From sequence record OR062945.1: a stretch of 64,000 nt of DNA, one strand, 5' to 3'. Each line of letters opens with the position of its first letter. Positions within the stretch are counted from its first letter, which is position 1. Below are positions 8,921 through 50,115 of this stretch, one piece after another. A program made the translations under genes and the position numbers. The notes beneath the pieces were generated by a model that searched no databases, was not told the origin of the DNA, and saw only the letters and a program-made list of their open reading frames with translations. The stretch comes from Escherichia phage 308Ecol101PP.

Positions 8921-9119
8921 CATCTCTAACTACTTAGAAGAACCTTTTGACGAAGCAATCCCTTATTTGGTAAAACTGTTGGGTCGTGAATTTAAGATTA
9001 ATTTTGACATCGACCCTTTGAACCCACATGACGTGTCATTTTCGATAAATGGGACTCCGGTTGAGTATGAGTTCTGTATTGAAGAGGATGGACGTTTTTA
9101 TTTTAATTTAATGAGATAA
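8910..9119 (+). CDS. hypothetical protein (start uncertain)
   Basis: Track ORF 8826..9119 overlaps gene 55; internal ATGs at 8904 and 8910. Confidence 0.35.
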
Positions 9120-9120
9120 T

Positions 9121-9444
9121 ATGACTACCGAGATTATTGAAAATAAAGAAGCAGAAGATGCAGTAGCTAAAATGCTACAAGAAATCCAAAAGAAAAATGA
9201 AGCTGAAGCACGTAAAAAATCCGAAAAGATTCTTAAAAAGAATCGTTTTGAACTAAACCGTCTTTATGCTCATGCTCAAGAAGCAGCAATTCAAAACAAC
9301 TTCGAAGCTTACGAATATGCTATTAAGAAATCTCGGGATATTCTACGACAACCATATAATGACAAGTTAATTAAAATCCAGTGGGTTACTACTCGTCAGG
9401 CTATTGAGGACATCATTAACGGCGCTAGTTCAAACAAAGTTTAA
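9121..9444 (+). CDS. hypothetical coiled-coil protein
   Basis: 107 aa, Lys/Glu-rich. Confidence 0.45.
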   Translation: MTTEIIENKEAEDAVAKMLQEIQKKNEAEARKKSEKILKKNRFELNRLYAHAQEAAIQNNFEAYEYAIKKSRDILRQPYNDKLIKIQWVTTRQAIEDIINGASSNKV

Positions 9445-9664
9445 ACGTCTGAAGCTGAACGCAGGGTTCACTCTTAAATTGGGAGGTCCTCTTTGTGTTA
9501 AAATCTCTGAAAAGGAATATCACGACGGTTCTATTACAGAAATTTGTCCGCCTATTGTAAAGGCAGACCCAAAACAACTCGTGTGGGTCGATTCATTTCA
9601 AGTTAAGAAATGGTGGAAACGATGAGAGAAATCGATTTAGGTATTTTCTGAGAGGTGATTATGC

Positions 9665-9838
9665 ATGACGAACGACCTGACCTCTGAAAATTTCGATAAA
9701 ATCCGTAAAGGCAAAGCAGAAAGAATGAGACGTTTTAAAGAGTCTTATGATAAAGCTAAAGCCGAAGGAACTATTACATACAAGCCCATTCGATTTAAAA
9801 GTTCAAATGAGCCTCTGTACGGTGTACTATGTGGATAG
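9665..9838 (+). CDS. hypothetical small basic protein (57 aa, not in ORF track)
   Basis: Hand-translated ATG 9665 to TAG 9836-9838 with GAGGTGA upstream; lies at the locus where T4 carries agt. Confidence 0.3.
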   Translation: MTNDLTSENFDKIRKGKAERMRRFKESYDKAKAEGTITYKPIRFKSSNEPLYGVLCG

Positions 9839-9862
9839 GAACTCTTCGGAGTTCCTTTTTTG
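9838..9862 (+). terminator. rho-independent terminator (UUCG tetraloop)
   Basis: GGAACTC-TTCG-GAGTTCC followed by TTTTTTG. Confidence 0.6.
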
Positions 9863-9907
9863 CTTTATAAACGGATGATAGAATGAATTAACTAATGAGG
9901 AAATAAT

Positions 9908-19300: not shown

Positions 19301-19936
19301 ATGAAAACTACTCCTATTACTATCGCTATTGACGCAATCATAAAACAAGCTTCTTCTTTGGCCGCTATGGCCAAAGTAATTAGTCAAAACCCTGCTCGTT
19401 ATAATGCTATTCTAGAAACTCTTCGACGCCCAGGACTTAGTAATTATGAAAGCCGAGTAATTATTACAGGTGTTGGTAAGAATGCTAATATTGCAACTAA
19501 AGCTTCTGAGACATTTGCTTCACTTGGTATCCCGAGTATGTACTTGAACACTGGGCATTATTCTCACGGTGATGCAGGATTCATTGCGCCTAATGATGTG
19601 TTGATTCATATTAGTCGTTCTGGTAAAACTGAAGAAATGATAGGCGTGGCTAAGCATCTTAAAATGATTCGTCCGAACGTCAAACAGATTCTGTTGCATT
19701 GTAACCCGGACATTCCACAAGAATACGAAGCTCTTTTTGATTATACGTTCTGTACAGGCATCGCAGTAGAGGTTGATGAGAATTCTCTGGCTCCGACCAT
19801 GTCCACTACATTGTTGTTAGCGCTTATCGATACGTTTGCTATCAACCTTTCGTCTGAACGTGGATTTACCTCTAATGACTTCCTTAAGTTCCACCCTGGT
19901 GGTGCACTAGGTGCCATGTTACGAGGCGAACAATGA
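19301..19936 (+). CDS. SIS-domain sugar-phosphate isomerase (KdsD/GutQ-like or GmhA-like, no CBS domains)
   Basis: 211 aa; SIS-like pattern GVGKNANIA...SRSGKTEE and C-terminal HPGGALG, characteristic of arabinose-5-phosphate isomerase SIS domains. Confidence 0.7.
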   Translation: MKTTPITIAIDAIIKQASSLAAMAKVISQNPARYNAILETLRRPGLSNYESRVIITGVGKNANIATKASETFASLGIPSMYLNTGHYSHGDAGFIAPNDVLIHISRSGKTEEMIGVAKHLKMIRPNVKQILLHCNPDIPQEYEALFDYTFCTGIAVEVDENSLAPTMSTTLLLALIDTFAINLSSERGFTSNDFLKFHPGGALGAMLRGEQ

Positions 19937-20076
19937 AAGCAATAACAATAGGACTTTTACTATTGATGCTTGTCATGACTATCTACTGGAGCTTAACGGC
20001 TCCAGTAATGATTCCGACTCTTATAATCGGATGGATTATGATTGGACTACAAGCAAAGTATGAATGCTTTAACTAG
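19933..20076 (+). CDS. hypothetical small membrane protein (47 aa, not in ORF track)
   Basis: Hand-translated ATG 19933 (ATGA overlap) to TAG 20074-20076; almost entirely hydrophobic. Confidence 0.35.
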   Translation: MKAITIGLLLLMLVMTIYWSLTAPVMIPTLIIGWIMIGLQAKYECFN

Positions 20077-20117
20077 AATAGTGTACAATACTCCTACTTA
20101 CCAATGAGGACCACAAC

Positions 20118-21803
20118 ATGAAAAAAGCTGTTATTCTTGGTGCTGGACTGGCAACTCGTTTGTATCCAATAACGCATCATATTCCTAAGGTGCTTGTTAA
20201 CTATAAACAAGACACTATTCTGAGCAATTTGTATACAATTTATTCTGACCTTGGCGCAGATGAAATTATTGTAGTAGTTCATTCAAAATTTGCTGAAACT
20301 GTTCGAGCTTATTGTGAGCAAGAAGGGTTCAATGTGACTATTCGTACAGTTGATGAAGCGTATGGTTCTGCTTATGCTCTTGCTAAATTGCACAAAGATT
20401 TAGACGGCCATAATGTAATTGTTAACTGGTGTGATATTATTCCTGATTTTGGTTCGTGGTCTTGGAATGTTAACGCAATCTATGTTAAGGGTGACGAATG
20501 TCGATATAATTTCGACGGTGAAAATATCACTAATGTAGGTTCAACAGGTGGTAATGTTGTAGGAATTTATCAGTTCAAAGACTGGGAATTCTATATGGGT
20601 TCTACTGATGAGGAAATTCATGAATACTGCAAAGGACGTGATTTCGTAGAATTCCTTTACGGCAGCGCATTCAATAAATCAGAGCTTATGAATCTAATTG
20701 ATTTAGGTGATATGCCTAAACTTGAAAAAGCTCATGAAGTTCGTGAACTTAATCGTAGTTTTAATGCAGTTGAAATTGGTGAAGAAACTGTAACTAAATT
20801 CGCATTAACCGAACAGGGCCGAGCTCTTCAGAAAGATGAGATTTCATGGTATCTTAAAGTGAAATCAGATTCAGTTCCTCAGTTAGTTTCTGTTAATGAA
20901 AATAACTTTGAAATGGAACGCATTAAAGGTAAGCCGGCATTTGAATATATTAAATCCAAATCAAGTCTTGCTCGTCCACAAATTGTTGATGCAATTTTAG
21001 ATGCACTGAAATTCAGCACAGACACTTATTTTGTAAGTCCTGAAACTGTTCGTCGTGATTTCACTAAAGAATTCTATACTAAAGTTATTGATCGTTGTGA
21101 AAGTATTCAACCATTGATTGATTCATTTGGTAAAATCACACATGTGAACTACACTAAGATTGGGCGTCTGAAGCCAATGTTGAAACAAGCTTTAGAACAC
21201 CTTATTCGTTATCATAACCGTTCTCAGGGACAGTACTCTGTTATTCATGGTGACCCGAACTTCAGTAATACTATGATTACTGATAATGGTGAAGTCAAGT
21301 TTATCGACCCTCGTGGATATTTTGGTGAAACCAAGATTTATGGGCCAAAATTGTATGATGAAGCTAAAGTGCTTTACGCTGTTTCAGGTTATGATGAATT
21401 CAACGCTAATCCGACTTGGGGACAGTTTACTATTGATGAAACAACTTGTAATGTGACTATTAACATCAATCCGTTAGTTTACAAATATGGAAAGATGAGT
21501 TCGTTTAACGAGTATCATCATTTGGCAGTGGCAATTATCTGGATTGCATTAGGTGGTTATTTCAAGAATAATCCACTTAAAGCGGTAGCCGCATATTATA
21601 AAGGTATGGAACTTCTGACTAAGCAATTACGTAATATGGGCCGTGTACTTCAGGACGGCACTATTAGTTATGATGTAGCAGAACCTGTAACGGCTACTCT
21701 GATTACAAAAAATCCTGGTAAATGGGTACTAACTGATAAAGAAACTGGTGTTTCTTATCGTCCAATCGGTGGCGATATCACTCATCAATGGGAACGAATC
21801 TAA
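20118..21803 (+). CDS. bifunctional sugar-1-phosphate nucleotidyltransferase / kinase-fold protein
   Basis: N-terminus ILGAGLATRLYPIT resembles the G-x-G-T-R motif of sugar nucleotidyltransferases; C-terminal HGDPNFSNTMI...KFIDPRG resembles the catalytic loop of APH/choline-kinase-fold kinases. Confidence 0.7.
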   Translation: MKKAVILGAGLATRLYPITHHIPKVLVNYKQDTILSNLYTIYSDLGADEIIVVVHSKFAETVRAYCEQEGFNVTIRTVDEAYGSAYALAKLHKDLDGHNVIVNWCDIIPDFGSWSWNVNAIYVKGDECRYNFDGENITNVGSTGGNVVGIYQFKDWEFYMGSTDEEIHEYCKGRDFVEFLYGSAFNKSELMNLIDLGDMPKLEKAHEVRELNRSFNAVEIGEETVTKFALTEQGRALQKDEISWYLKVKSDSVPQLVSVNENNFEMERIKGKPAFEYIKSKSSLARPQIVDAILDALKFSTDTYFVSPETVRRDFTKEFYTKVIDRCESIQPLIDSFGKITHVNYTKIGRLKPMLKQALEHLIRYHNRSQGQYSVIHGDPNFSNTMITDNGEVKFIDPRGYFGETKIYGPKLYDEAKVLYAVSGYDEFNANPTWGQFTIDETTCNVTININPLVYKYGKMSSFNEYHHLAVAIIWIALGGYFKNNPLKAVAAYYKGMELLTKQLRNMGRVLQDGTISYDVAEPVTATLITKNPGKWVLTDKETGVSYRPIGGDITHQWERI

Positions 21804-22189
21804 TGCACCGTGTAAAAAACATGCTTAATCTTTGTTTTGATGTCGATGATTGTATAACAGAGTGGAATAACAATCGTGATTACGTGAACTTCAAACCAGA
21901 CGTCGAAATGGTGTCTGCCATTAATGCCCTGTATGATGCAGGGCATACCATAACGCTTTACACTGCTCGCGGTATGAAGTCAGTAGGTCCTGGTCGTATA
22001 GCAATTGACATTCTCCCAAGTCTGATTCAGAACTTGGCAAACATTGGATTGAAGTACCATAATTTGCTAACACATAAACCAGTATATGATTGGATTATCG
22101 ACGACAAAGCTATGCGTCCTGACGAATTCAAAGCTCTTATGAATAAAGGCGAATTCGAAACATTTAAATCATATAAACCGAATCTATAA
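21803..22189 (+). CDS. HAD-superfamily phosphatase
   Basis: 128 aa with HAD motif I (FDVDDCIT); TAATG overlap with upstream gene; track start 21788. Confidence 0.6.
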   Translation: MHRVKNMLNLCFDVDDCITEWNNNRDYVNFKPDVEMVSAINALYDAGHTITLYTARGMKSVGPGRIAIDILPSLIQNLANIGLKYHNLLTHKPVYDWIIDDKAMRPDEFKALMNKGEFETFKSYKPNL

Positions 22190-22235
22190 TAATTTAAGTA
22201 AGACCTGCAAAAACCATCGCATCAATTAACGTGGG

Positions 22236-23411
22236 ATGCAAAAAAAAAAAATGAATACTTTTAAAATCGGAACGAATTTTGATTTAGCTCTTCTTGATAA
22301 AATCGTAGAGCTCAATAAAACTTATCCTAATAGCTTGATAAACGAAGTATACGGCTCTACAAGAGAAATGGCTTTTGTAGCAGCCAGACCTGATTTTAGG
22401 CTTCCTGACGTTGACAAAAAGATGTTAGAAGATTACGTTAAACGTTGTAACGAATTAGGTATTTGCTTTAACTATACACTCAACACGATAAATCCTGGTT
22501 CAAAAAGAGAACTAGTTGAGTGGAAGAAGAAAGCTATTCAGGATTATGTTCAGTATCTTTGGTCAATAGGCGTATGGCGTATTACTATCGCTAACCCTGT
22601 TGTTATGGAAATTGTTCGTGAAGTCAATAAAGACATTGAGATTGAAGTTTCAACAATTCTACATGTCGATGCTGTAACTCAAATCAAATACTTGCATGAC
22701 CAATATAATATCAAAAAGGTCTGCTGTGGAATTCATAAGAACCGTTCAGTTTCTTTCCTGAAACGTGCAGCAGAGTTTTGTAATAAGAACAATATAATAT
22801 TTGAAGTTCTTGTAAATGAGTTCTGTTCTAATGCTGGTAAAGGGTACACAACACATTGTAGCTATCGTGACTCTTGCTATATTTTCCATAGCACCGATGT
22901 TACAGTAGATGATGCCAAATCCTTAAATGGATATCCAATGCAACACTGTATTAAAGCTCGTGATACAGATCCATTTAACTGGTTGAGAACTCGTTTTGTT
23001 CGTCCTCAAGATTTGAAACTTTATAATGATATTGGTATCACTCAATTTAAAGTTTCAGGACGTACAGGTAGCACCGACTACATTTTAAAAGTTCTTGAAG
23101 CTTACGCTTCTGAAAAGTTTGAAGGTAATTTGTTGGAATTGTGGAAGCCTTTAGAGACCATTTTCACTCTTGAAAATGAGACTGAGTTTTCACATACGGT
23201 AAATATTGAAACCTCTTTGTTAGACGGCTTTTTAGAAAAAAGGTGGTTCAAACATCCAGATTTCGATTGTGCTAATGAAATCTGCGGGACGACGTGTACA
23301 TATTGTGAAAGATATTATAAACGTCAGTTATCTAAAAATGGGTTATCAGAAAACTCTATATCTATTATTGATATAACTAACTCTGATGACGCTTTGAGGT
23401 ACCCAGAATGA
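22236..23411 (+). CDS. hypothetical Cys-rich protein (start at ATG 22236 or 22251)
   Basis: 391 aa with many Cys (CCGIH, EFCSNAG, HCSYRDSC, CANEICGTTCTYCE); an A12 tract lies between the two candidate ATGs. Confidence 0.5.
   Translation: MQKKKMNTFKIGTNFDLALLDKIVELNKTYPNSLINEVYGSTREMAFVAARPDFRLPDVDKKMLEDYVKRCNELGICFNYTLNTINPGSKRELVEWKKKAIQDYVQYLWSIGVWRITIANPVVMEIVREVNKDIEIEVSTILHVDAVTQIKYLHDQYNIKKVCCGIHKNRSVSFLKRAAEFCNKNNIIFEVLVNEFCSNAGKGYTTHCSYRDSCYIFHSTDVTVDDAKSLNGYPMQHCIKARDTDPFNWLRTRFVRPQDLKLYNDIGITQFKVSGRTGSTDYILKVLEAYASEKFEGNLLELWKPLETIFTLENETEFSHTVNIETSLLDGFLEKRWFKHPDFDCANEICGTTCTYCERYYKRQLSKNGLSENSISIIDITNSDDALRYPE
22240..22251 (+). repeat. homopolymeric A12 tract at the 5' end of the Cys-rich gene
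   Basis: ATGCAAAAAAAAAAAATG read directly from the sequence. Confidence 0.8.
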
Positions 23412-23689: not shown

Positions 23690-24406
23690 ATGGGAAAACA
23701 TAACACAATGAAATATATTAAAGCCGCAGATTTTCAATCCGCATTTAAAGCTGTCAATCGTGAAATTTTAGAAAATCCACAGTTCGTTACTGATTCTCGT
23801 ATTGGACGTTGTAATGAAATTGGGTCTATGACAGTAGTTGTTGATACCCCTTCATCATTCAAAATGACCGACCCACGTATTAATCGCATCTCTTATGAAT
23901 ATGCTGAAGATTTCTGGAAATTTATGATTTCTGGTGGTACTGATGCAAAAGAAGCATTTAAGGCATATCCTAACGTTGCTAAATTTATTTCTAAACCTAA
24001 ATCAGACGCTTTGCCTGCAAACTTCAACACTTTCTATGGTCCACGAATTGCGGCCCAGTTACCAGCTCTTCTCAAAGAACTTAAAGAGAAACCTAATTCA
24101 CGAAGAGTTGTGTTTCAAATTCTTGAAAGTTCAGATCAGGCTTTGCTTGATTCGGATGAAACGCTTGAATATCCATGTACTGACTCAGTGACTTATTATA
24201 TTCGTGATGGTAAGCTTTATACCCACTGTCATATGCGTTCTCAGAACTGTGCTGTTGTTATGCAGTTGGATTTTTATCTCCAAGGAAAATTACTTCATTA
24301 TATCGCTAACGAATGTGGTGTAGAAGTTGGTGATTATACTCATACCATGGTAAGTGCCCATGTGTTTGAACGTGATTTTGATTATGTTAAAGGATTCCTT
24401 GACTAA
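23690..24406 (+). CDS. 42: dCMP hydroxymethylase (thymidylate-synthase fold)
   Basis: 238 aa; TS-family pattern SRRVVFQIL ... YPCTDS (catalytic Cys) ... QLDFY (Asp 31 residues after the Cys, as in cytosine-specific members). Confidence 0.7.
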   Translation: MGKHNTMKYIKAADFQSAFKAVNREILENPQFVTDSRIGRCNEIGSMTVVVDTPSSFKMTDPRINRISYEYAEDFWKFMISGGTDAKEAFKAYPNVAKFISKPKSDALPANFNTFYGPRIAAQLPALLKELKEKPNSRRVVFQILESSDQALLDSDETLEYPCTDSVTYYIRDGKLYTHCHMRSQNCAVVMQLDFYLQGKLLHYIANECGVEVGDYTHTMVSAHVFERDFDYVKGFLD

Positions 24407-25305
24407 TGGCTATTTTCCGCGTACCTATCTTGAGTATGCGGTCTTATGAAACTGGACAGTATGCTATCCTTAAGGATGGCAACTTCCAACTTCATTTGCA
24501 CCGTGCTAATCCGGGTGATGTGATTACATATCCACGTAATGCATCTGATATTAAAGAATGCGAACGTCTTTTTCCAGAATTTAAGTTTGTTCCATTATGG
24601 TATAAAGATAACGCGTATAACACTCGTAAATATTTCTGGTCTGAAAATGAATTTGTGGTTGATTCATTAATTGCTTATTATGATTGTGATTTTCTAATCA
24701 CAGATATCACTGGATATGACGGCGCTTTTGATGTGGAATTCAATTTCAATATCACTGCAGACCCTAATAAACCACGTTTTTATATTGACGAATTCTTAAA
24801 AACCGACATGTTGTCGGTTAATCGTTCACTTCAAACTACTGTGTTGAATGAACGTCAAAAAGAAGTGCTGGTTAACGCAGGTGCAGATGGTAATAAGATT
24901 ATCGTAACCCAGAAAGTTATACGTCCTTCCATCATGCAGCGTCTTGTAGGTGATTTGGCTCCTATTCATCTAGATGGTATTTTTCATCCATTTCGAATTA
25001 GTGACCCGTGCTATCGTTTTGAACAAGTGGTTGAATGTGCAATTCAATTAGGTCAACCGCTTTATATAACTGATCCAAATAATAGTTTCGACAGAAATAA
25101 GTATCCTGAAGAAGCGCTGATTCGAATTTTTAATCCAACTAAAACTGAGTACTATCAAATTCTTAAAGGACGTCCGAAGATTCAATATTTCGAAAATCCT
25201 GAAGAAGTATTCCATCCAGGTCTTGGTGAGTTCATCTACTTTAATGCTTTAATTTCTTCGCCGTATAATATACCTAAATACGAAGATGTCGTAATCGAGG
25301 AATAA
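24406..25305 (+). CDS. hypothetical protein at the locus where T4 encodes beta-glucosyltransferase
   Basis: 299 aa, TAATG overlap with gene 42; no resemblance to T4 beta-GT that I can see. Confidence 0.5.
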   Translation: MAIFRVPILSMRSYETGQYAILKDGNFQLHLHRANPGDVITYPRNASDIKECERLFPEFKFVPLWYKDNAYNTRKYFWSENEFVVDSLIAYYDCDFLITDITGYDGAFDVEFNFNITADPNKPRFYIDEFLKTDMLSVNRSLQTTVLNERQKEVLVNAGADGNKIIVTQKVIRPSIMQRLVGDLAPIHLDGIFHPFRISDPCYRFEQVVECAIQLGQPLYITDPNNSFDRNKYPEEALIRIFNPTKTEYYQILKGRPKIQYFENPEEVFHPGLGEFIYFNALISSPYNIPKYEDVVIEE

Positions 25306-25306
25306 A

Positions 25307-25855
25307 ATGGTTAAAATTATTTTAGTAGATGGCCCGGATAATGCCGGTAAAACAACTTTCATTAATGACATAATGGAAATTAGTGAAAGATATGTAAAGA
25401 TTGATTTCCCTAAACGAACAGTTGATGGACGTTTCGATGTTAAGTCTCGAAATGAAGTTGGCTGTTTCGAAACGATGTTGAATTATTTAGACCCTACTAA
25501 GATTTATCTGTTAGACCGTGGATATATTAGTAACTGGGTTTATGGACGTATTCGACAAGATGCGGACTCGGTTCTTGACGTTTATGAACAGGATTATGTT
25601 CGTCTTTGCCAAAACCATGATGTGTTCACAATTATTTTAACACGTAACGAAATGACTGAAAGTTTTGAAGACGACCTTATTACTTTGTCTTCATTCGGTT
25701 TTAATACAGTCATTTCATATTTTGAAGAGTTTGCAATTCATAACAAAATCCAAACGTATCAATTACTTAATCATGACGGTGCTAACAAAGTTATAGGATT
25801 TAATGCAAGCGAACGTAATTATTTGATTACAGAAATTATCAAATGGGCTCGTTAA
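25307..25855 (+). CDS. P-loop nucleotide kinase, thymidylate-kinase-like
   Basis: 182 aa; Walker A VDGPDNAGKTT and DRGY motif as in the Tmk family. Confidence 0.55.
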   Translation: MVKIILVDGPDNAGKTTFINDIMEISERYVKIDFPKRTVDGRFDVKSRNEVGCFETMLNYLDPTKIYLLDRGYISNWVYGRIRQDADSVLDVYEQDYVRLCQNHDVFTIILTRNEMTESFEDDLITLSSFGFNTVISYFEEFAIHNKIQTYQLLNHDGANKVIGFNASERNYLITEIIKWAR

Positions 25856-44635: not shown

Positions 44636-46453
44636 ATGATTAAAAATGAAATTAAGGTATTGTCAGATGTAGAACATATTAAGAAACGTAGTGGCATGTA
44701 TATTGGTTCTTCGGCCAAAGAAGCCCACGAGCGTTTTTTGTTTGGTAAATATCAACAAGTTGAATATGTTCCTGGTCTGGTTAAATTAATCGATGAGATT
44801 ATTGACAACTCGGTTGATGAAGCTATTCGTACATCATTTAAGTTTGCAAATAAAATCGATGTGCAAATTAAAAATAATCAAGTTTCGGTGGAAGATAACG
44901 GACGTGGTATTCCTCAAGGTTTAGTTACCGACCAAACAGGTGAACAAATTCCTGGGCCTGTAGCAGCCTGGACTATTCCAAAGGCTGGTGGTAACTTTGG
45001 TGATGACTCTGAACGCAAGACTGGCGGTATGAACGGCGTCGGGAGTAGTTTAACTAATATCTTCTCTACGTTGTTTACAGGCATAACGTCAGATGGCGAA
45101 AATGAAATCACTGTTAACTGTTCAAACGGAATGGAAAACAAATCGTGGTCTTCTAAGAAATCTAAAGGTAAAGGCACTAAAGTAATCTTCACTCCTGATT
45201 TCTCTTCGTTTGAAGAACATAATTTATCTCAAATTTATTTAGATATTACTTTAGACCGACTTCAAACATTGGCAGTCGTTTATCCTGATATCAAGTTCAC
45301 ATTTAATGGTAAAAAGGTTGATGGTAATTTTAAACGATTTGCTAAACAATTTGGCGAAGATAACATCATTCAAGAAAATGATAAAGTCTCTATAGCATTC
45401 ACAACATCACCAGATGGCTTCCGTCATTTAACTTATGTGAATAACATCCATACTAAAAATGGTGGTCATCATGTTGAATGTGTAATGGATGATATCTGCG
45501 AACATCTTTTGCCGGGTATTAAAAAGAAATATAAGGGTATTGAAGTCACTAAAGCTCGTGTTAAAGAATGTCTCACAATGTTGATGTTTATTAGAGACAT
45601 GAGCAACATGCGTTTTGATTCTCAGACTAAAGAACGTTTAACGTCAACGTATGGTGATATTCGTAATCATATCCAATTGGATGCTAAGAAAATTGCTCAG
45701 GCACTTCTTAAAAACGAAGCCTTGATTATGCCTATTGTTGAAGCAGCATTAGCTCGTAAATTGGCAGCAGAAAAGGCTGCAGAAACTAAAGCAGCTAAAA
45801 AGGCAACTAAAGCTAAGGTTCATAAGCATATTAAAGCTAACCAATGTGGTAAAGATGCAGATACGACATTGTTCTTAACAGAAGGTGATTCGGCAATTGG
45901 TTATCTCATTGATGTTCGTGACCGTGAACTACACGGCGGATTCCCATTACGTGGTAAGGTGATGAATAGCTGGGGTATGTCATATGCTGATATGATGAAG
46001 AACAAAGAGCTCTTTGATATCTGTGCTATCACAGGTCTTATTCTTGGTGAAAAGGCAGAGAACACGAACTATCGTAATATTGCAATTATGACCGATGCCG
46101 ATCATGACGGTCTTGGAAGTATTTATCCGGCTTTGCTTGCTTTCTTTAGTAATTGGCCTGAATTGTTTGAACAAGGACGTATTCGCTTTGTTAAAACGCC
46201 TGTAATTATTGCACAAATTGGCAAAACTCAAAAATGGTTTTATACTGTAGCTGAGTATGAAGAAGCTAAAGATACACTTCCTAAGCATAGTATTCGATAC
46301 ATCAAGGGATTAGGCTCCCTTGAAAAGTCAGAATATCGTGAAATGATTCAGAACCCTGTGTACGACGTAGTTAAACTTCCTGAAAATTGGAAAGAACTCT
46401 TTGAAATGTTGTTGGGTGATGATTCAGAACTTCGTAAAGAATGGATGTCCTAA
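44636..46453 (+). CDS. 39: DNA topoisomerase II large subunit, GyrB-like, unsplit (covers T4 gp39 plus gp60)
   Basis: 605 aa; N-terminal GHKL ATPase and C-terminal TOPRIM (IAIMTDADHDGLGSIYP), the part T4 encodes separately as gene 60. Confidence 0.85.
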   Translation: MIKNEIKVLSDVEHIKKRSGMYIGSSAKEAHERFLFGKYQQVEYVPGLVKLIDEIIDNSVDEAIRTSFKFANKIDVQIKNNQVSVEDNGRGIPQGLVTDQTGEQIPGPVAAWTIPKAGGNFGDDSERKTGGMNGVGSSLTNIFSTLFTGITSDGENEITVNCSNGMENKSWSSKKSKGKGTKVIFTPDFSSFEEHNLSQIYLDITLDRLQTLAVVYPDIKFTFNGKKVDGNFKRFAKQFGEDNIIQENDKVSIAFTTSPDGFRHLTYVNNIHTKNGGHHVECVMDDICEHLLPGIKKKYKGIEVTKARVKECLTMLMFIRDMSNMRFDSQTKERLTSTYGDIRNHIQLDAKKIAQALLKNEALIMPIVEAALARKLAAEKAAETKAAKKATKAKVHKHIKANQCGKDADTTLFLTEGDSAIGYLIDVRDRELHGGFPLRGKVMNSWGMSYADMMKNKELFDICAITGLILGEKAENTNYRNIAIMTDADHDGLGSIYPALLAFFSNWPELFEQGRIRFVKTPVIIAQIGKTQKWFYTVAEYEEAKDTLPKHSIRYIKGLGSLEKSEYREMIQNPVYDVVKLPENWKELFEMLLGDDSELRKEWMS

Positions 46454-46495
46454 GCTCCTTCTGGAGCTTCATTTTAATTTTAATAAGGCTTAATT

Positions 46496-47596
46496 ATGAA
46501 AGTTATGTTTATCCCATCTCGCGCAGTCCCATTTAATCCTGACCGTGTACAAGGTGGTCTTGAAGCAGTACATTTAAATGTGTTGAAATATCTTGTGTCC
46601 ATCGGTGCTGATATTGATTATATCGGCTTTGATAATGACACGTTTGGTGACTGGAAAGTTACACACCATCCTGTTGGTCATCTGACTAAATTTAGTCTAG
46701 GTATGAGTTATACTATGGCTCGTAAGATTGTTGAACTAGCCGGCATCCATGAATACGATTTTGTTGTTACTATGGAACCGACTAAACTAACCGTTCAGGC
46801 AATTAAAGACGCAGGTCTCTCTAAAGTTCATAAGAATTTTATGGCAACACCATTTGAACCGGTATCTCGTGGCATTGTTCAAATTTGGGACCAGACTATT
46901 CAAATTCATAAGAATGGTGGTAAGAGTTATGCTCCTACTAAAGCCTTCCGTGAATTTGAACGCAAATATTGTTATATGACTTCAGGTCTGACTGACAAAA
47001 TTGATTATGATTATTGGCGAGCAAATCCGTTGTTTGAAGCCGAAGATTATCCGGTTATTTGTTTGAATGAGAAACCTGAAGTTCTTCCGGCGACTGATCT
47101 GATTATTAGTGCACAACGTTATGACACTAAAATGCGTCGTACTGATGTTGCTCTTGAAGCGATTAAAGCACTAGGCGAAAATGGTGTAGGATACTGTCCA
47201 AGCAAATGGGCACCACCAGCTAAATATCCTGTTATTATTGATGCTCCACACAGTGAAATCATGGAACGTCTTAAAACAGCTAAAGCGCTTATTAATACGT
47301 GTCCTGACACAGGTACGGTAGAGAATAGTTCTATTGAAGCCATCTCTAAAGGTGTCCCTGTAATCCAGTTAGTTTTTAAGGATTATCCTCATGCGACATT
47401 CGAATACGACCCAGATACTGTGCGTGTAGAAATTGATTCCTCTACTCCTAAGAAAGAAGTAGTTGCGCTTTACACAAAAGCTGTATTAGAATTCACTGAC
47501 ACATACGAAGCTCGAGTTAAACGTGCTGAAGCAGTATGGAAGAAGTATAACCGAGATGCAGTTGTTGCGATGTGGGATAAAATCTTCACAGCGTAA
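46496..47596 (+). CDS. GT-B fold glycosyltransferase (GT4-like), candidate DNA glycosyltransferase
   Basis: 366 aa; C-terminal E-x7-E-type motif VENSSIEAISKGVPVIQ typical of GT4 retaining glycosyltransferases; N-terminus MKVMFIPSRAVPFNPDRVQGG. Confidence 0.6.
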   Translation: MKVMFIPSRAVPFNPDRVQGGLEAVHLNVLKYLVSIGADIDYIGFDNDTFGDWKVTHHPVGHLTKFSLGMSYTMARKIVELAGIHEYDFVVTMEPTKLTVQAIKDAGLSKVHKNFMATPFEPVSRGIVQIWDQTIQIHKNGGKSYAPTKAFREFERKYCYMTSGLTDKIDYDYWRANPLFEAEDYPVICLNEKPEVLPATDLIISAQRYDTKMRRTDVALEAIKALGENGVGYCPSKWAPPAKYPVIIDAPHSEIMERLKTAKALINTCPDTGTVENSSIEAISKGVPVIQLVFKDYPHATFEYDPDTVRVEIDSSTPKKEVVALYTKAVLEFTDTYEARVKRAEAVWKKYNRDAVVAMWDKIFTA

Positions 47597-47612: not shown

Positions 47613-47663
47613 GGCACTATTACACATAAGATGATAAATTATATGGTCTTTAGTAATAGTGCC
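47613..47663 (+). repeat. 11-bp inverted repeat with 29-nt loop between the glycosyltransferase gene and rIIA.1
   Basis: GGCACTATTAC (47613-47623) and GTAATAGTGCC (47653-47663). Confidence 0.5.
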
Positions 47664-47688: not shown

Positions 47689-47889
47689 ATGAGAACATAT
47701 AACGTGGACTTGGAACTTTTTGATAAAGCAGTGCTCCGGGAATTCCGGCTTATCCAAAGATTTTTTGATATCGAGTCAGCAGAGTCCTTTAAAGAACGCT
47801 TTAAAGAAATTCGATATAAAATACAAACCGATACAGCTACTAAAGAAGAACTTCTTGAAGTAGCAGAAATTTTTAAACGTAACTTGTGA
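47689..47889 (+). CDS. hypothetical protein (rIIA.1 locus)
   Basis: 66-aa ORF immediately upstream of rIIA. Confidence 0.45.
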   Translation: MRTYNVDLELFDKAVLREFRLIQRFFDIESAESFKERFKEIRYKIQTDTATKEELLEVAEIFKRNL

Positions 47890-47901: not shown

Positions 47902-50115
47902 ATGATTATTGAAACGGCTAAAGAAACGATTATTGGTTCAGGCGGTAAGAGCACAGCATTTACTATTCAAGGCAATAGCAAAGTTTATAAGATTTTGTCT
48001 AATGACCTTTATACAAACAAAGAATTGGCTTGTGTACGTGAATTAATCACAAACTGTATTGATGGGCAAATTCTTAATGGTTGCACTGATAAGTTTATTG
48101 TTCAGGCTCCAGGTCGTTTAGACCCACGTTTTGTAGTTCGTGATTTTGGACCTGGTATGAGTGATTTCACTATTCGTGGTAATGACGAAGAGCCAGGAAT
48201 TTATAACTCATATTTTGCTTCAACTAAAACATCGAGTAACGATTTCATTGGTGGATTCGGACTCGGCTCTAAAGCTCCATTAGCATATACTGATACGTTT
48301 AACCTTACGTCTTATCATAATGGTGAAGTTCGTGGTTACGTAATCTACCAAGATGACACAGGTCCACAGATTAAGCCGACCTTTGTAGATAAGATGGGTC
48401 CTGATGACCGTACGGGTGTAGAAGTAGTTGTACCGGTTAACCCGGAAGATTTTGAAAAGTTTGCATCCGAAATTGCATATGTTATGCGTCCTCTAGGTGA
48501 TATTGCAGAAGTTCGTGGTGTTAAAGATATTAAATACTTCCCAGAATTTGATGATGTATATTTGGCCAAGGAAGCTCCATGGGGTGAACGTGGTAATATC
48601 ATGGCTGTTTATGGCGGTATTGTATATCCAATCGGAAGTGTTATTAAAGAACAAACATGGATGATGACACGATGCACTACAGCTTATATTAAATTCCCAA
48701 TGGGTGAACTAGATGTTGCTCCGTCTCGCGAAGCATTGTCATTTGATAAACGTACAGTAGCAAATATCCATAAACGCGTTGCAGAAATCGATGCTAAATT
48801 GTTCGCTGAAGATTCTAAGAAATGGATTGATTGTAAATACCCACGACATGTGTTCCGCGAAATTGATTCTCTTGGCTATACCGCTCGTAAATACATGGAA
48901 AAGGCCGGGTCTAATATTGAATCACTGAAATACTCTAAAGAACAACTAACTTATTCTGAGTTGTACAAACGTTTTAAAATGGGACCTGAGTGGTGTAATC
49001 TTGGTGTCGTATACGATATCGTTGAATCCCCTCGTCTTCGTCGTATTCGTGAAAGTGGTAGCTCATCATCAACCATTTCAATTAACAGCCTGATTGGCAT
49101 TAACATTAAAAACGTTGAAATTGTTATTGACGATGTTAAGGGACGCGTTCCATTAATGCGAGCTCTTAATTCAATTGAAATGTCTAAAGACGAGGTTAAA
49201 TTATCCGGTAAAGTTCCACGCGGTTTTGGTAAAAGCGTACTATTCGTTGACCCTACAGACGAAGATGCAATGAAACTTCTGGAACGCCTTAAAGTTATCT
49301 TTGATGGCGACAACATTAACATGTACAAGACTTCAGAGCTTTTACAAATCGTTAAGCCATGGATTGAAGTCAGGAAACGGACTAATGAGCCTCGTCCTAA
49401 ATCCCCGAGTGCTCATCGATTCTTTAAGAATGAAAACGATGTTTGGGTATCAGAAGACCTCTTTATTCCGGCAAGTGAAGCAGATGAAATCCAAGGTTAT
49501 GCTATAGTTCGTAATCGTTCTAATGCTGAATGTCTTGACGCAGATAAAGGTTGGTTGAACTATGACTCCAATTTCTTGACCCGTATTGCTGATTTGTCAG
49601 GTATTAAAGAGTTCACTGTAGTTCGTCCACAGATTGCTAAGAAAGTTCGTAAACTTGGTGAAGTAGAATGCTTGTTCGAAAAATCAATTAATGACTATAT
49701 TACGCTAATTGATAAAGTGGATTATGATGAGTATGTATCACCAAGTCGTAGAGCACAGCCTTATTTGAATCATATTACTCGTAACGAAGAGCTTAACTTC
49801 CTTAGTAAGTATTTTAGCTCTAAGAACAAAGAAATCAGTAAAGACTTTGCAAAACTCTCAACAGTAAATAATCGTTGGGGATGGAATCGATTCGCAGGTG
49901 CTACTAATACAGACCTGAATAAGAAGTTAGAATTGTGTGCTAAAATTTTCGATAAGCTTAAAGATAATGCTTACGATAATGATGATAAAATGGTTATTGA
50001 ATTCGAAACCAATTATCATATTGTGTCAGAATACATGGGACGACGTGGTACTCTTTCCAAAGAACAGGTCGCTCAAATCGTTAAATTCATGAAGGCCGTG
50101 GAAGCGGCCAAATAA
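47902..50115 (+). CDS. rIIA: rIIA protein
   Basis: 737 aa (T4 rIIA about 725 aa), N-terminal ATPase-like region, position upstream of rIIB. Confidence 0.8.
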   Translation: MIIETAKETIIGSGGKSTAFTIQGNSKVYKILSNDLYTNKELACVRELITNCIDGQILNGCTDKFIVQAPGRLDPRFVVRDFGPGMSDFTIRGNDEEPGIYNSYFASTKTSSNDFIGGFGLGSKAPLAYTDTFNLTSYHNGEVRGYVIYQDDTGPQIKPTFVDKMGPDDRTGVEVVVPVNPEDFEKFASEIAYVMRPLGDIAEVRGVKDIKYFPEFDDVYLAKEAPWGERGNIMAVYGGIVYPIGSVIKEQTWMMTRCTTAYIKFPMGELDVAPSREALSFDKRTVANIHKRVAEIDAKLFAEDSKKWIDCKYPRHVFREIDSLGYTARKYMEKAGSNIESLKYSKEQLTYSELYKRFKMGPEWCNLGVVYDIVESPRLRRIRESGSSSSTISINSLIGINIKNVEIVIDDVKGRVPLMRALNSIEMSKDEVKLSGKVPRGFGKSVLFVDPTDEDAMKLLERLKVIFDGDNINMYKTSELLQIVKPWIEVRKRTNEPRPKSPSAHRFFKNENDVWVSEDLFIPASEADEIQGYAIVRNRSNAECLDADKGWLNYDSNFLTRIADLSGIKEFTVVRPQIAKKVRKLGEVECLFEKSINDYITLIDKVDYDEYVSPSRRAQPYLNHITRNEELNFLSKYFSSKNKEISKDFAKLSTVNNRWGWNRFAGATNTDLNKKLELCAKIFDKLKDNAYDNDDKMVIEFETNYHIVSEYMGRRGTLSKEQVAQIVKFMKAVEAAK

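Follow-up and report, generated by a model that had tools for sequence, protein, structure and literature searches.

The open reading frame (ORF) at positions 46496..47596 on the plus strand of Escherichia phage 308Ecol101PP DNA (accession OR062945.1; the 64,000 nucleotides analysed here are called "the window" below) appears to encode an arabinosyltransferase that acts on DNA and extends the sugar chain there by a second arabinose. We give this reading a probability of roughly 0.78, and infer the step from the phyletic pattern of the gene. The broader conclusion, that the 366 amino acid (AA) product belongs to the phage's DNA-modification pathway as a nucleotide-sugar transferase of GT-B type, is supported by the solved structure of an orthologue and by linkage to that pathway.

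The 5.5 kb surrounding this ORF are 98–99% identical to many Mosigvirus (RB69-like) coliphages, for example DCP548, ST0, HY126 and ChristianSchoenbein (whose locus tags begin with bas46_); the window is a Mosigvirus genome. The orthologues RB69 ORF003c/gp3 (NP_861693), Bas46 bas46_0103 and the HY126 glycosyltransferase (GT) have 95–100% AA identity to the window protein, the same length of 366 AAs, the same location between gene 39 and rIIA.1 and a GT-B fold with UDP, and we see no substantive difference among them. In the ChristianSchoenbein genome bas46_0103 is annotated as a "putative hmC-arabinosyltransferase" (hmC, hydroxymethylcytosine). The HY126 protein is identical to the window protein at 363 of 366 positions (three residues differ), and its structures, 9IQZ ("phage HY126 glycosyltransferase") and 9IR0 (the same, "with UDP"), were released by the PDB on 2025-07-16. 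The GT-B fold and UDP binding are thus experimentally established for an essentially identical protein, which bears out the fold that a first-pass annotation of this DNA had proposed.

Profile libraries contributed little. A Pfam search with the 366-AA protein returned zero families even at E ≤ 10, PF00534 and PF13692 (Glycos_transf_1) included, an NCBIfam search (E ≤ 1) likewise returned none, and in phmmer and hmmsearch comparisons with the PDB sequences the family profile matched no chain except the HY126 entry 9iqz. PHROG 8302 matches the protein over residues 1–366 (E 1e-222), and is itself labelled "unknown function". The glycosyltransferase assignment therefore rests on the fold and the solved structure. 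A Foldseek search with a weak AlphaFold2 (AF2) model of the protein also retrieved GT-B enzymes, with 9IQZ and 9IR0 at E 1e-51, followed by BshA (3mbo), PimA (4nc9 and 2gej) and MshA (3c4q) at E 1e-8 to 1e-7, with template modelling (TM) scores of about 0.5 and probability 1.0. The family is isolated in sequence: a word search of 5.8 billion proteins gave five clusters, exhaustive scanning of 1.84 billion representatives with HMMER gave 11 relatives, and an IMG/VR scan gave seven loci.

The evidence that points to the second sugar comes from the distribution of two protein families among phages. Besides the 366-AA protein, the window encodes a 299-AA protein of compact GT-B fold (24406..25305, plus strand; orthologue of RB69 gp46:47, DLP3 gp79 and Thanatos TH1_063), which we propose as the first, base-proximal arabinosyltransferase. 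A tblastn survey of 50,697 phage records found the 366-AA family in 211, namely Mosigvirus-type Escherichia/Shigella phages (about 155 genomes, one copy each, with ≥95% AA identity) and 55 phages of Acinetobacter (two locations per record, with about 42% identity); it is confined to these two groups of T4-like phages, which carry the arabinose module (below) as well. The 299-AA family is present in 348 records, nearly always adjoining a thymidylate synthase homologue, and adds phages of Klebsiella, Serratia, Enterobacter, Proteus, Yersinia, Pectobacterium, Edwardsiella and Shewanella. No member of the 366-AA family was found in the Serratia, Klebsiella, Yersinia, Proteus or Shewanella phage records of the survey, although the 299-AA protein is there. 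Indeed, the latter is found in all arabinosylating T4-like phages, including LC53 and Thanatos, whose DNA carries single sugars.

The copy number of the 366-AA family (0, 1 or 2) tracks the number of sugars reported (1, 2 or 3) in LC53 and Thanatos, in Mosigvirus, and in DLP3, respectively. The cytosines of LC53 reportedly bear a single arabinose each (5-ara-hC), and those of Bas46 two. All seven of the LC53 module genes are present at 60–82% identity to those of the window, and its slot between rIIA.1 and gene 39 holds only two small ORFs and no homologue of the 366-AA protein. Thanatos has a mono-pentose modification and is called mono-arabinosylated, with a single arabinosyltransferase, by Lee 2026; it has the 299-AA homologue TH1_063 and no homologue of the 366-AA family. 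(TH1_065, a 378-AA Thanatos protein in the position of DLP3 gp77, was considered as a hidden homologue and rejected, since it is a U32-peptidase-family gene product with 79.5% identity to the window protein encoded at 22236–23411.) The Mosigvirus phages RB69, NP and Bas46 carry mono- plus di-arabinose, and the published Mosigvirus chain ends at two sugars. DLP3 has tri-arabinose and two tandem paralogues, gp77 and gp76, which have 42.6% and 40.3% identity, respectively, to the window protein and 57.5% to each other, and which directly follow the kinase in a cluster of isomerase, nucleoside triphosphate (NTP)-transferase, thymidylate synthase, GT and kinase genes. Two distant members of the family lie on short contigs. 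The 394-AA protein P0130 (L012, 3040–4224, on a 4.5 kb JGI metagenome contig; E 3e-86 to the family profile) adjoins genes for a T4-like DNA ligase and DsbA, a third genomic location for the family besides the 39–rIIA slot and the main cluster.

The DLP3 paralogues, called arabinosyltransferases 2 and 3, are those for which enzymatic data are available. Their identity to the window protein (40–43%) extends over the full length and includes the invariant element TGTVEN.S.EAIS.G.PV.QL, and together gp76 and gp77 add a third arabinose to RB69 DNA in vitro from UDP-arabinofuranose (UDP-Araf), while no single GT was active on DNA that contained only 5-hydroxycytosine (5hoC) (Lee 2026). The difference is that in DLP3 two tandem copies lie in the main cluster and both are required for the third sugar, whereas the window has one copy, 21 kb from its cluster. 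In the published models RB69 gp3 is "beta-arabinosyltransferase 2", responsible for the second arabinose, and gp46:47 is "arabinosyltransferase 1", responsible for the first (Lee 2026). The first-pass annotation had named the 366-AA protein the best candidate for the DNA sugar transferase, possibly an arabinosyltransferase. As a GT-B enzyme of an arabinose DNA pathway, with homologues that transfer arabinose from UDP-Araf, it fits that description, but it is probably not the base-proximal enzyme, as LC53 and Thanatos have no homologue.

The acceptor base was predicted in the same annotation to be hmC, and this is contradicted by the gene that makes it. The thymidylate-synthase-family homologue of gene 42 (23690..24406, plus strand; Pfam) shares just 25% identity with T4 gp42, against 60–90% between neighbouring genes and their T4 counterparts. 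We aligned it with E. coli ThyA, T4 gp42 and the homologues of DLP3, Thanatos and LC53; like DLP3 gp80 it has N at the position of ThyA D169 and D at that of N177, whereas T4 gp42 keeps D169. The D169N change has been published as a signature of flavin-dependent 5-hydroxy-deoxycytidine monophosphate (5-hydroxy-dCMP) synthases, and the activity was confirmed for RB69 gp48 and DLP3 gp80 (Lee 2026). The phage should therefore contain derivatives of 5hoC, not of hmC. The DNA of RB69 and of Mosigvirus NP contains mono- and di-arabinosylated 5hoC, and the earlier assignment as arabinosyl-hmC has been described as erroneous.

The donor is likewise accounted for in the window, and the suggestion that it is made by the genes at 19301–23411 held up. 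The supply genes for UDP-Araf (19301..22189, plus strand; the AfhE and AfhF roles of the literature, with orthologues in DLP3, Thanatos and LC53) encode, according to Pfam, a SIS-domain arabinose-5-phosphate isomerase (19301–19936), a bifunctional NTP-transferase/kinase (20118–21803) and a 133-AA phosphatase homologue (21788–22189), all on the plus strand, and the DLP3 homologues of the 366-AA protein sit within the same module. Inside it as well is a 391-AA Peptidase_U32-family protein (22236..23411, plus strand; Pfam), 79.5% identical to Thanatos TH1_065 and 81.5% identical to its LC53 homologue; it is among the best conserved proteins of the module and has no match within the 15-kb DLP3 cluster region that was examined. 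The 5-hydroxy-dCMP synthase, the UDP-Araf module and the 299-AA protein thus all co-occur with the 366-AA ORF in the window. In the pathway that we propose, the gene 42 homologue (23690–24406) would make the base as 5-hydroxy-dCMP, the 299-AA protein (24406–25305) would most likely add the first arabinose, and the module at 19.3–22.2 kb would make UDP-Araf; the soluble 366-AA enzyme would bind that donor and place a second arabinose on the arabinose of 5hoC in DNA, converting 5-arabinosyl-hydroxycytosine to 5-arabinosyl-arabinosyl-hydroxycytosine. The second arabinose may then alter the set of host nucleases and defence systems able to attack the DNA.

T4 glucosylates its hmC with α- and β-glucosyltransferases (GT72, 1XV5/1Y6F, and GT63, respectively), which resemble the window protein in having a GT-B fold, a UDP-sugar donor and a modified cytosine in phage DNA as target; they differ in that they use glucose, act on hmC and are encoded in the 55–47 and 42–uvsX intervals, whereas the window protein is predicted to use arabinose, to act on arabinosyl-5hoC and is encoded between 39 and rIIA.1. 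No homologue of T4 a-gt or b-gt was found by tblastn across the 64-kb window, which spans both canonical loci (best E 1.4–2.7), so that the description of the genome as lacking agt and bgt stands for the window, the only part in which it could be tested. Blastp of the 366-AA protein against the two T4 enzymes gave no match at E ≤ 1. With hhalign the family profile gave a probability of 0.2% against a-gt and no signal against the 299-AA family, but this profile is shallow (an effective sequence number, Neff, of 1.6) and these results are therefore weak negative evidence. Judged by every sequence comparison that was run (hhalign against a-gt only), the 366-AA protein falls outside the T4 a-gt and b-gt families; HHpred-level similarity of the RB69 protein to a-gt has been noted in the literature (Thomas 2018).

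The first-pass annotation also held that neither canonical locus encodes a recognisable GT, and this is true of sequence searches and untrue of the fold. The 55–47 interval (8921–9907) is about 1 kb long and has small ORFs only. The 299-AA ORF is directly 3' of the gene 42 homologue, in the position of T4 b-gt, and is followed by a kinase-like ORF and uvsX; it has no Pfam match and no sequence similarity to b-gt. Its model, built from a 46-sequence alignment, has a mean predicted local distance difference test (pLDDT) score of 94.9 and a predicted TM score (pTM) of 0.89, and Foldseek matches it to GT-B proteins at probability 1.0. On this modelling the GT-B fold of the protein is a confident assignment.

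The first-pass annotation, like Thomas 2018, took the 366-AA enzyme to be the primary DNA sugar transferase, which would put arabinose straight onto the modified cytosine (hmC or 5hoC). It was, after all, the only GT-like protein that hidden Markov model methods found in RB69 at that time (Thomas 2018), it shares its GT-B fold with the T4 α- and β-glucosyltransferases and has been seen with UDP bound, its orthologue was the GT picked for crystallography in the HY126 study, and sibling genomes carry the hmC-arabinosyltransferase annotation quoted above. We nonetheless regard this as improbable. LC53 and Thanatos are arabinosylated or pentosylated without a homologue, yet have the 299-AA protein; the base is 5hoC rather than hmC; a second GT-B protein occupies the b-gt slot; and the DLP3 homologues are inactive on 5hoC DNA and jointly extend DNA that is already arabinosylated. 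In addition, according to a secondary account in a paper citing Mahler 2025, Bas46 survives deletion of the arabinosyltransferase Aat and is thereby rendered susceptible to a defence system; such tolerance of the loss does not suit a primary transferase.

A variant in which the 366-AA protein, as a processive or dual-specificity enzyme, adds the first arabinose as well as the second, and in which the 299-AA protein plays an accessory or epimerase-like part, would accord with the UDP-N-acetylglucosamine (UDP-GlcNAc) 2-epimerases that are among the top Foldseek matches of the latter. Against it, the module of the mono-glycosylated phages contains no further transferase candidate, and we think it very unlikely. 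Less likely still is a role outside DNA altogether, with a host envelope lipid or lipopolysaccharide (LPS), a small-molecule thiol, or a phage or host protein as acceptor. Besides HY126, the nearest solved folds are those of PimA, BshA, MshA and of LPS or small-molecule GTs, but at 10–15% identity such similarity to GT4 folds says nothing of the acceptor; the Acinetobacter phage homologues lie inside the DNA-arabinosylation cluster, homologues act on DNA in vitro (Lee 2026), and members of the family are confined to T4-like phages equipped with the arabinose module (211 phage records, with 11 proteins among the 1.84 billion representatives and seven loci in IMG/VR, as given above).

Several points weigh against the second-step assignment. 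The AF2 model of the 366-AA protein, built from a six-sequence alignment, is weak (pLDDT 58.7) and served only to retrieve structural neighbours. Glycosylation by the 299-AA protein, to which the first step is given, is putative: no activity has been reported for it, and the epimerases among its best structural matches could be read otherwise. As for the Bas46 deletion, Aat, reportedly the transferase of the second or third arabinose, is presumed from the Bas46 annotation to be the orthologue of the 366-AA protein. The second step of the Mosigvirus protein is one that we infer, in vitro transfer having been shown for DLP3 gp76 plus gp77 only, and the role given to RB69 gp3 by Lee 2026 is a proposal and not an experiment. 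Finally, DLP3 gp76 and gp77 are singly inactive (Lee 2026), and so the lone Mosigvirus copy might behave differently.

The nucleotide-sugar-binding motif of the C-terminal domain, VENSSIEAISKGVPVIQ (AAs 275–291; 47318..47368, plus strand), lies within the family-invariant TGTVEN.S.EAIS.G.PV.QL, itself part of the longer invariant block NTC..TGTVEN.S.EAIS.G.PV.QL. It had been described as a GT4-type E-x7-E motif, which is half right. The string VENSSIEAISKGVPVIQ is present, but its glutamates, E276 and E281, are spaced E-x4-E, and the protein has just one E-x7-E, in its N-terminal domain at AA 86. In an hhalign comparison with the most distant relative, P0135, which has weak Pfam GT1 matches and a canonical E-x7-E (KETAGYAVFEA), the first Glu of P0135 is opposite the invariant G273 and the second aligns with E281, and the EA..G.PV element is conserved; the position of the second Glu has therefore been kept, and that of the first is an invariant Gly. 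The bacterial retaining GT4 enzymes PimA, BshA and MshA are the best structural neighbours and share the C-terminal EA..G.PV element, but the window protein differs from them in having no Pfam GT1/GT4 match, Gly in place of the first Glu, E-x4-E spacing and a DNA-linked sugar as its predicted acceptor. By profile and by motif it is not a canonical GT4 enzyme, although structurally it is similar to enzymes of that family.

Between the 299-AA gene and uvsX is a gene for a 182-AA thymidylate-kinase-like nucleotide kinase (25307..25855, plus strand; PHROG 761; orthologues in DLP3, Thanatos and LC53), and its location prompts one to ask if the first arabinose is attached to the nucleotide; the experiments of Lee 2026, by their own account, leave undistinguished whether that step acts on nucleotide or on DNA. 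As a speculation that we think rather doubtful, the invariant G273/E276-x4-E281 variant may mark a switch to inverting, β-forming transfer of arabinofuranose, each structural neighbour of the scaffold being a retaining enzyme, with the first arabinose perhaps installed on the nucleotide before replication by the 299-AA protein and the adjacent extra kinase. If that were true, the 366-AA protein would be the phage's only transferase acting on polymerised DNA.

The 366-AA ORF begins with an ATG at 46496 and its stop codon ends at 47596, and a Shine-Dalgarno sequence, AAGG (46485–46488), lies 7 nucleotides 5' of the ATG. Compared with three orthologues its synonymous and non-synonymous codon differences number 16:5, 31:4 and 46:7, and its GC content (0.40) is close to that of the window (0.37); it is a genuine coding gene under purifying selection and not a chance ORF. 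Its 5' neighbour encodes the 605-AA large subunit of topoisomerase II (44636..46453, plus strand), 79% identical to T4 gp39 over 474 AAs, and 3' of it are rIIA.1 (47689..47889; 71% identity to T4) and rIIA (47902..50115). The corresponding stretch of T4 contains mobA, 60.1 and gene 60 and no GT, in agreement with the first-pass statement that this slot is not a GT locus in T4. The window topoisomerase gene is a single ORF, without the 39/60 split of T4, its mobA or 60.1 insertion or its translational-bypass region, and its stop codon is just 5' of the 366-AA gene. The spacer between the two (46452..46488, plus strand) has a terminator-like hairpin (46452–46469) that overlaps the gene 39 stop and is followed by the AAGG. 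The 92-nucleotide spacer between the 366-AA ORF and rIIA.1 contains a perfect 11-bp inverted repeat (47613–47663, plus strand), GGCACTATTAC ... GTAATAGTGCC, and has a folding energy of -27.6 kcal/mol; the repeat could be a transcript-processing element or a terminator. Farther to the right, between 58000 and 63000, the GC content climbs from about 0.36 to 0.41–0.43 and the GC skew becomes negative, which coincides, by synteny with Bas46, with a switch to minus-strand late genes (holin and the gp38 and gp37 tail-fibre genes).

The gene itself is already known. Thomas 2018 put forward the same hypothesis for RB69 ORF003c, including the genes between 43 and uvsX as a candidate module for UDP-arabinose; the gene has since been annotated, its product crystallised and its paralogues assayed, and in Bas46 it has apparently been deleted, to judge from the secondary account. 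The window holds a 99–100% identical copy. The analysis adds no biology beyond this, and its useful yield is a set of corrections to the first-pass annotation: the acceptor is 5hoC and not hmC, a second GT-B protein occupies the b-gt slot, and the motif is E-x4-E. The closest functional analogy may be with the β-1,6-glucosyl-α-glucose transferase of T2 and T6 (which makes gentiobiosyl-hmC), in that both would be second GTs that elongate a sugar on a modified cytosine and so diversify protection; the T2/T6 enzyme uses glucose from UDP-glucose on a hydroxymethyl linker, and the likeness drawn here is one of role.

Arabinosylated 5hoC shields the DNA of T4-like phages against glycosylases, restriction enzymes and certain CRISPR systems, and which defences are still effective changes with the number of sugars. 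The assignment of individual genes to individual sugars thus matters for phage engineering, for the sequencing of such genomes and for the choice of therapeutic phages.

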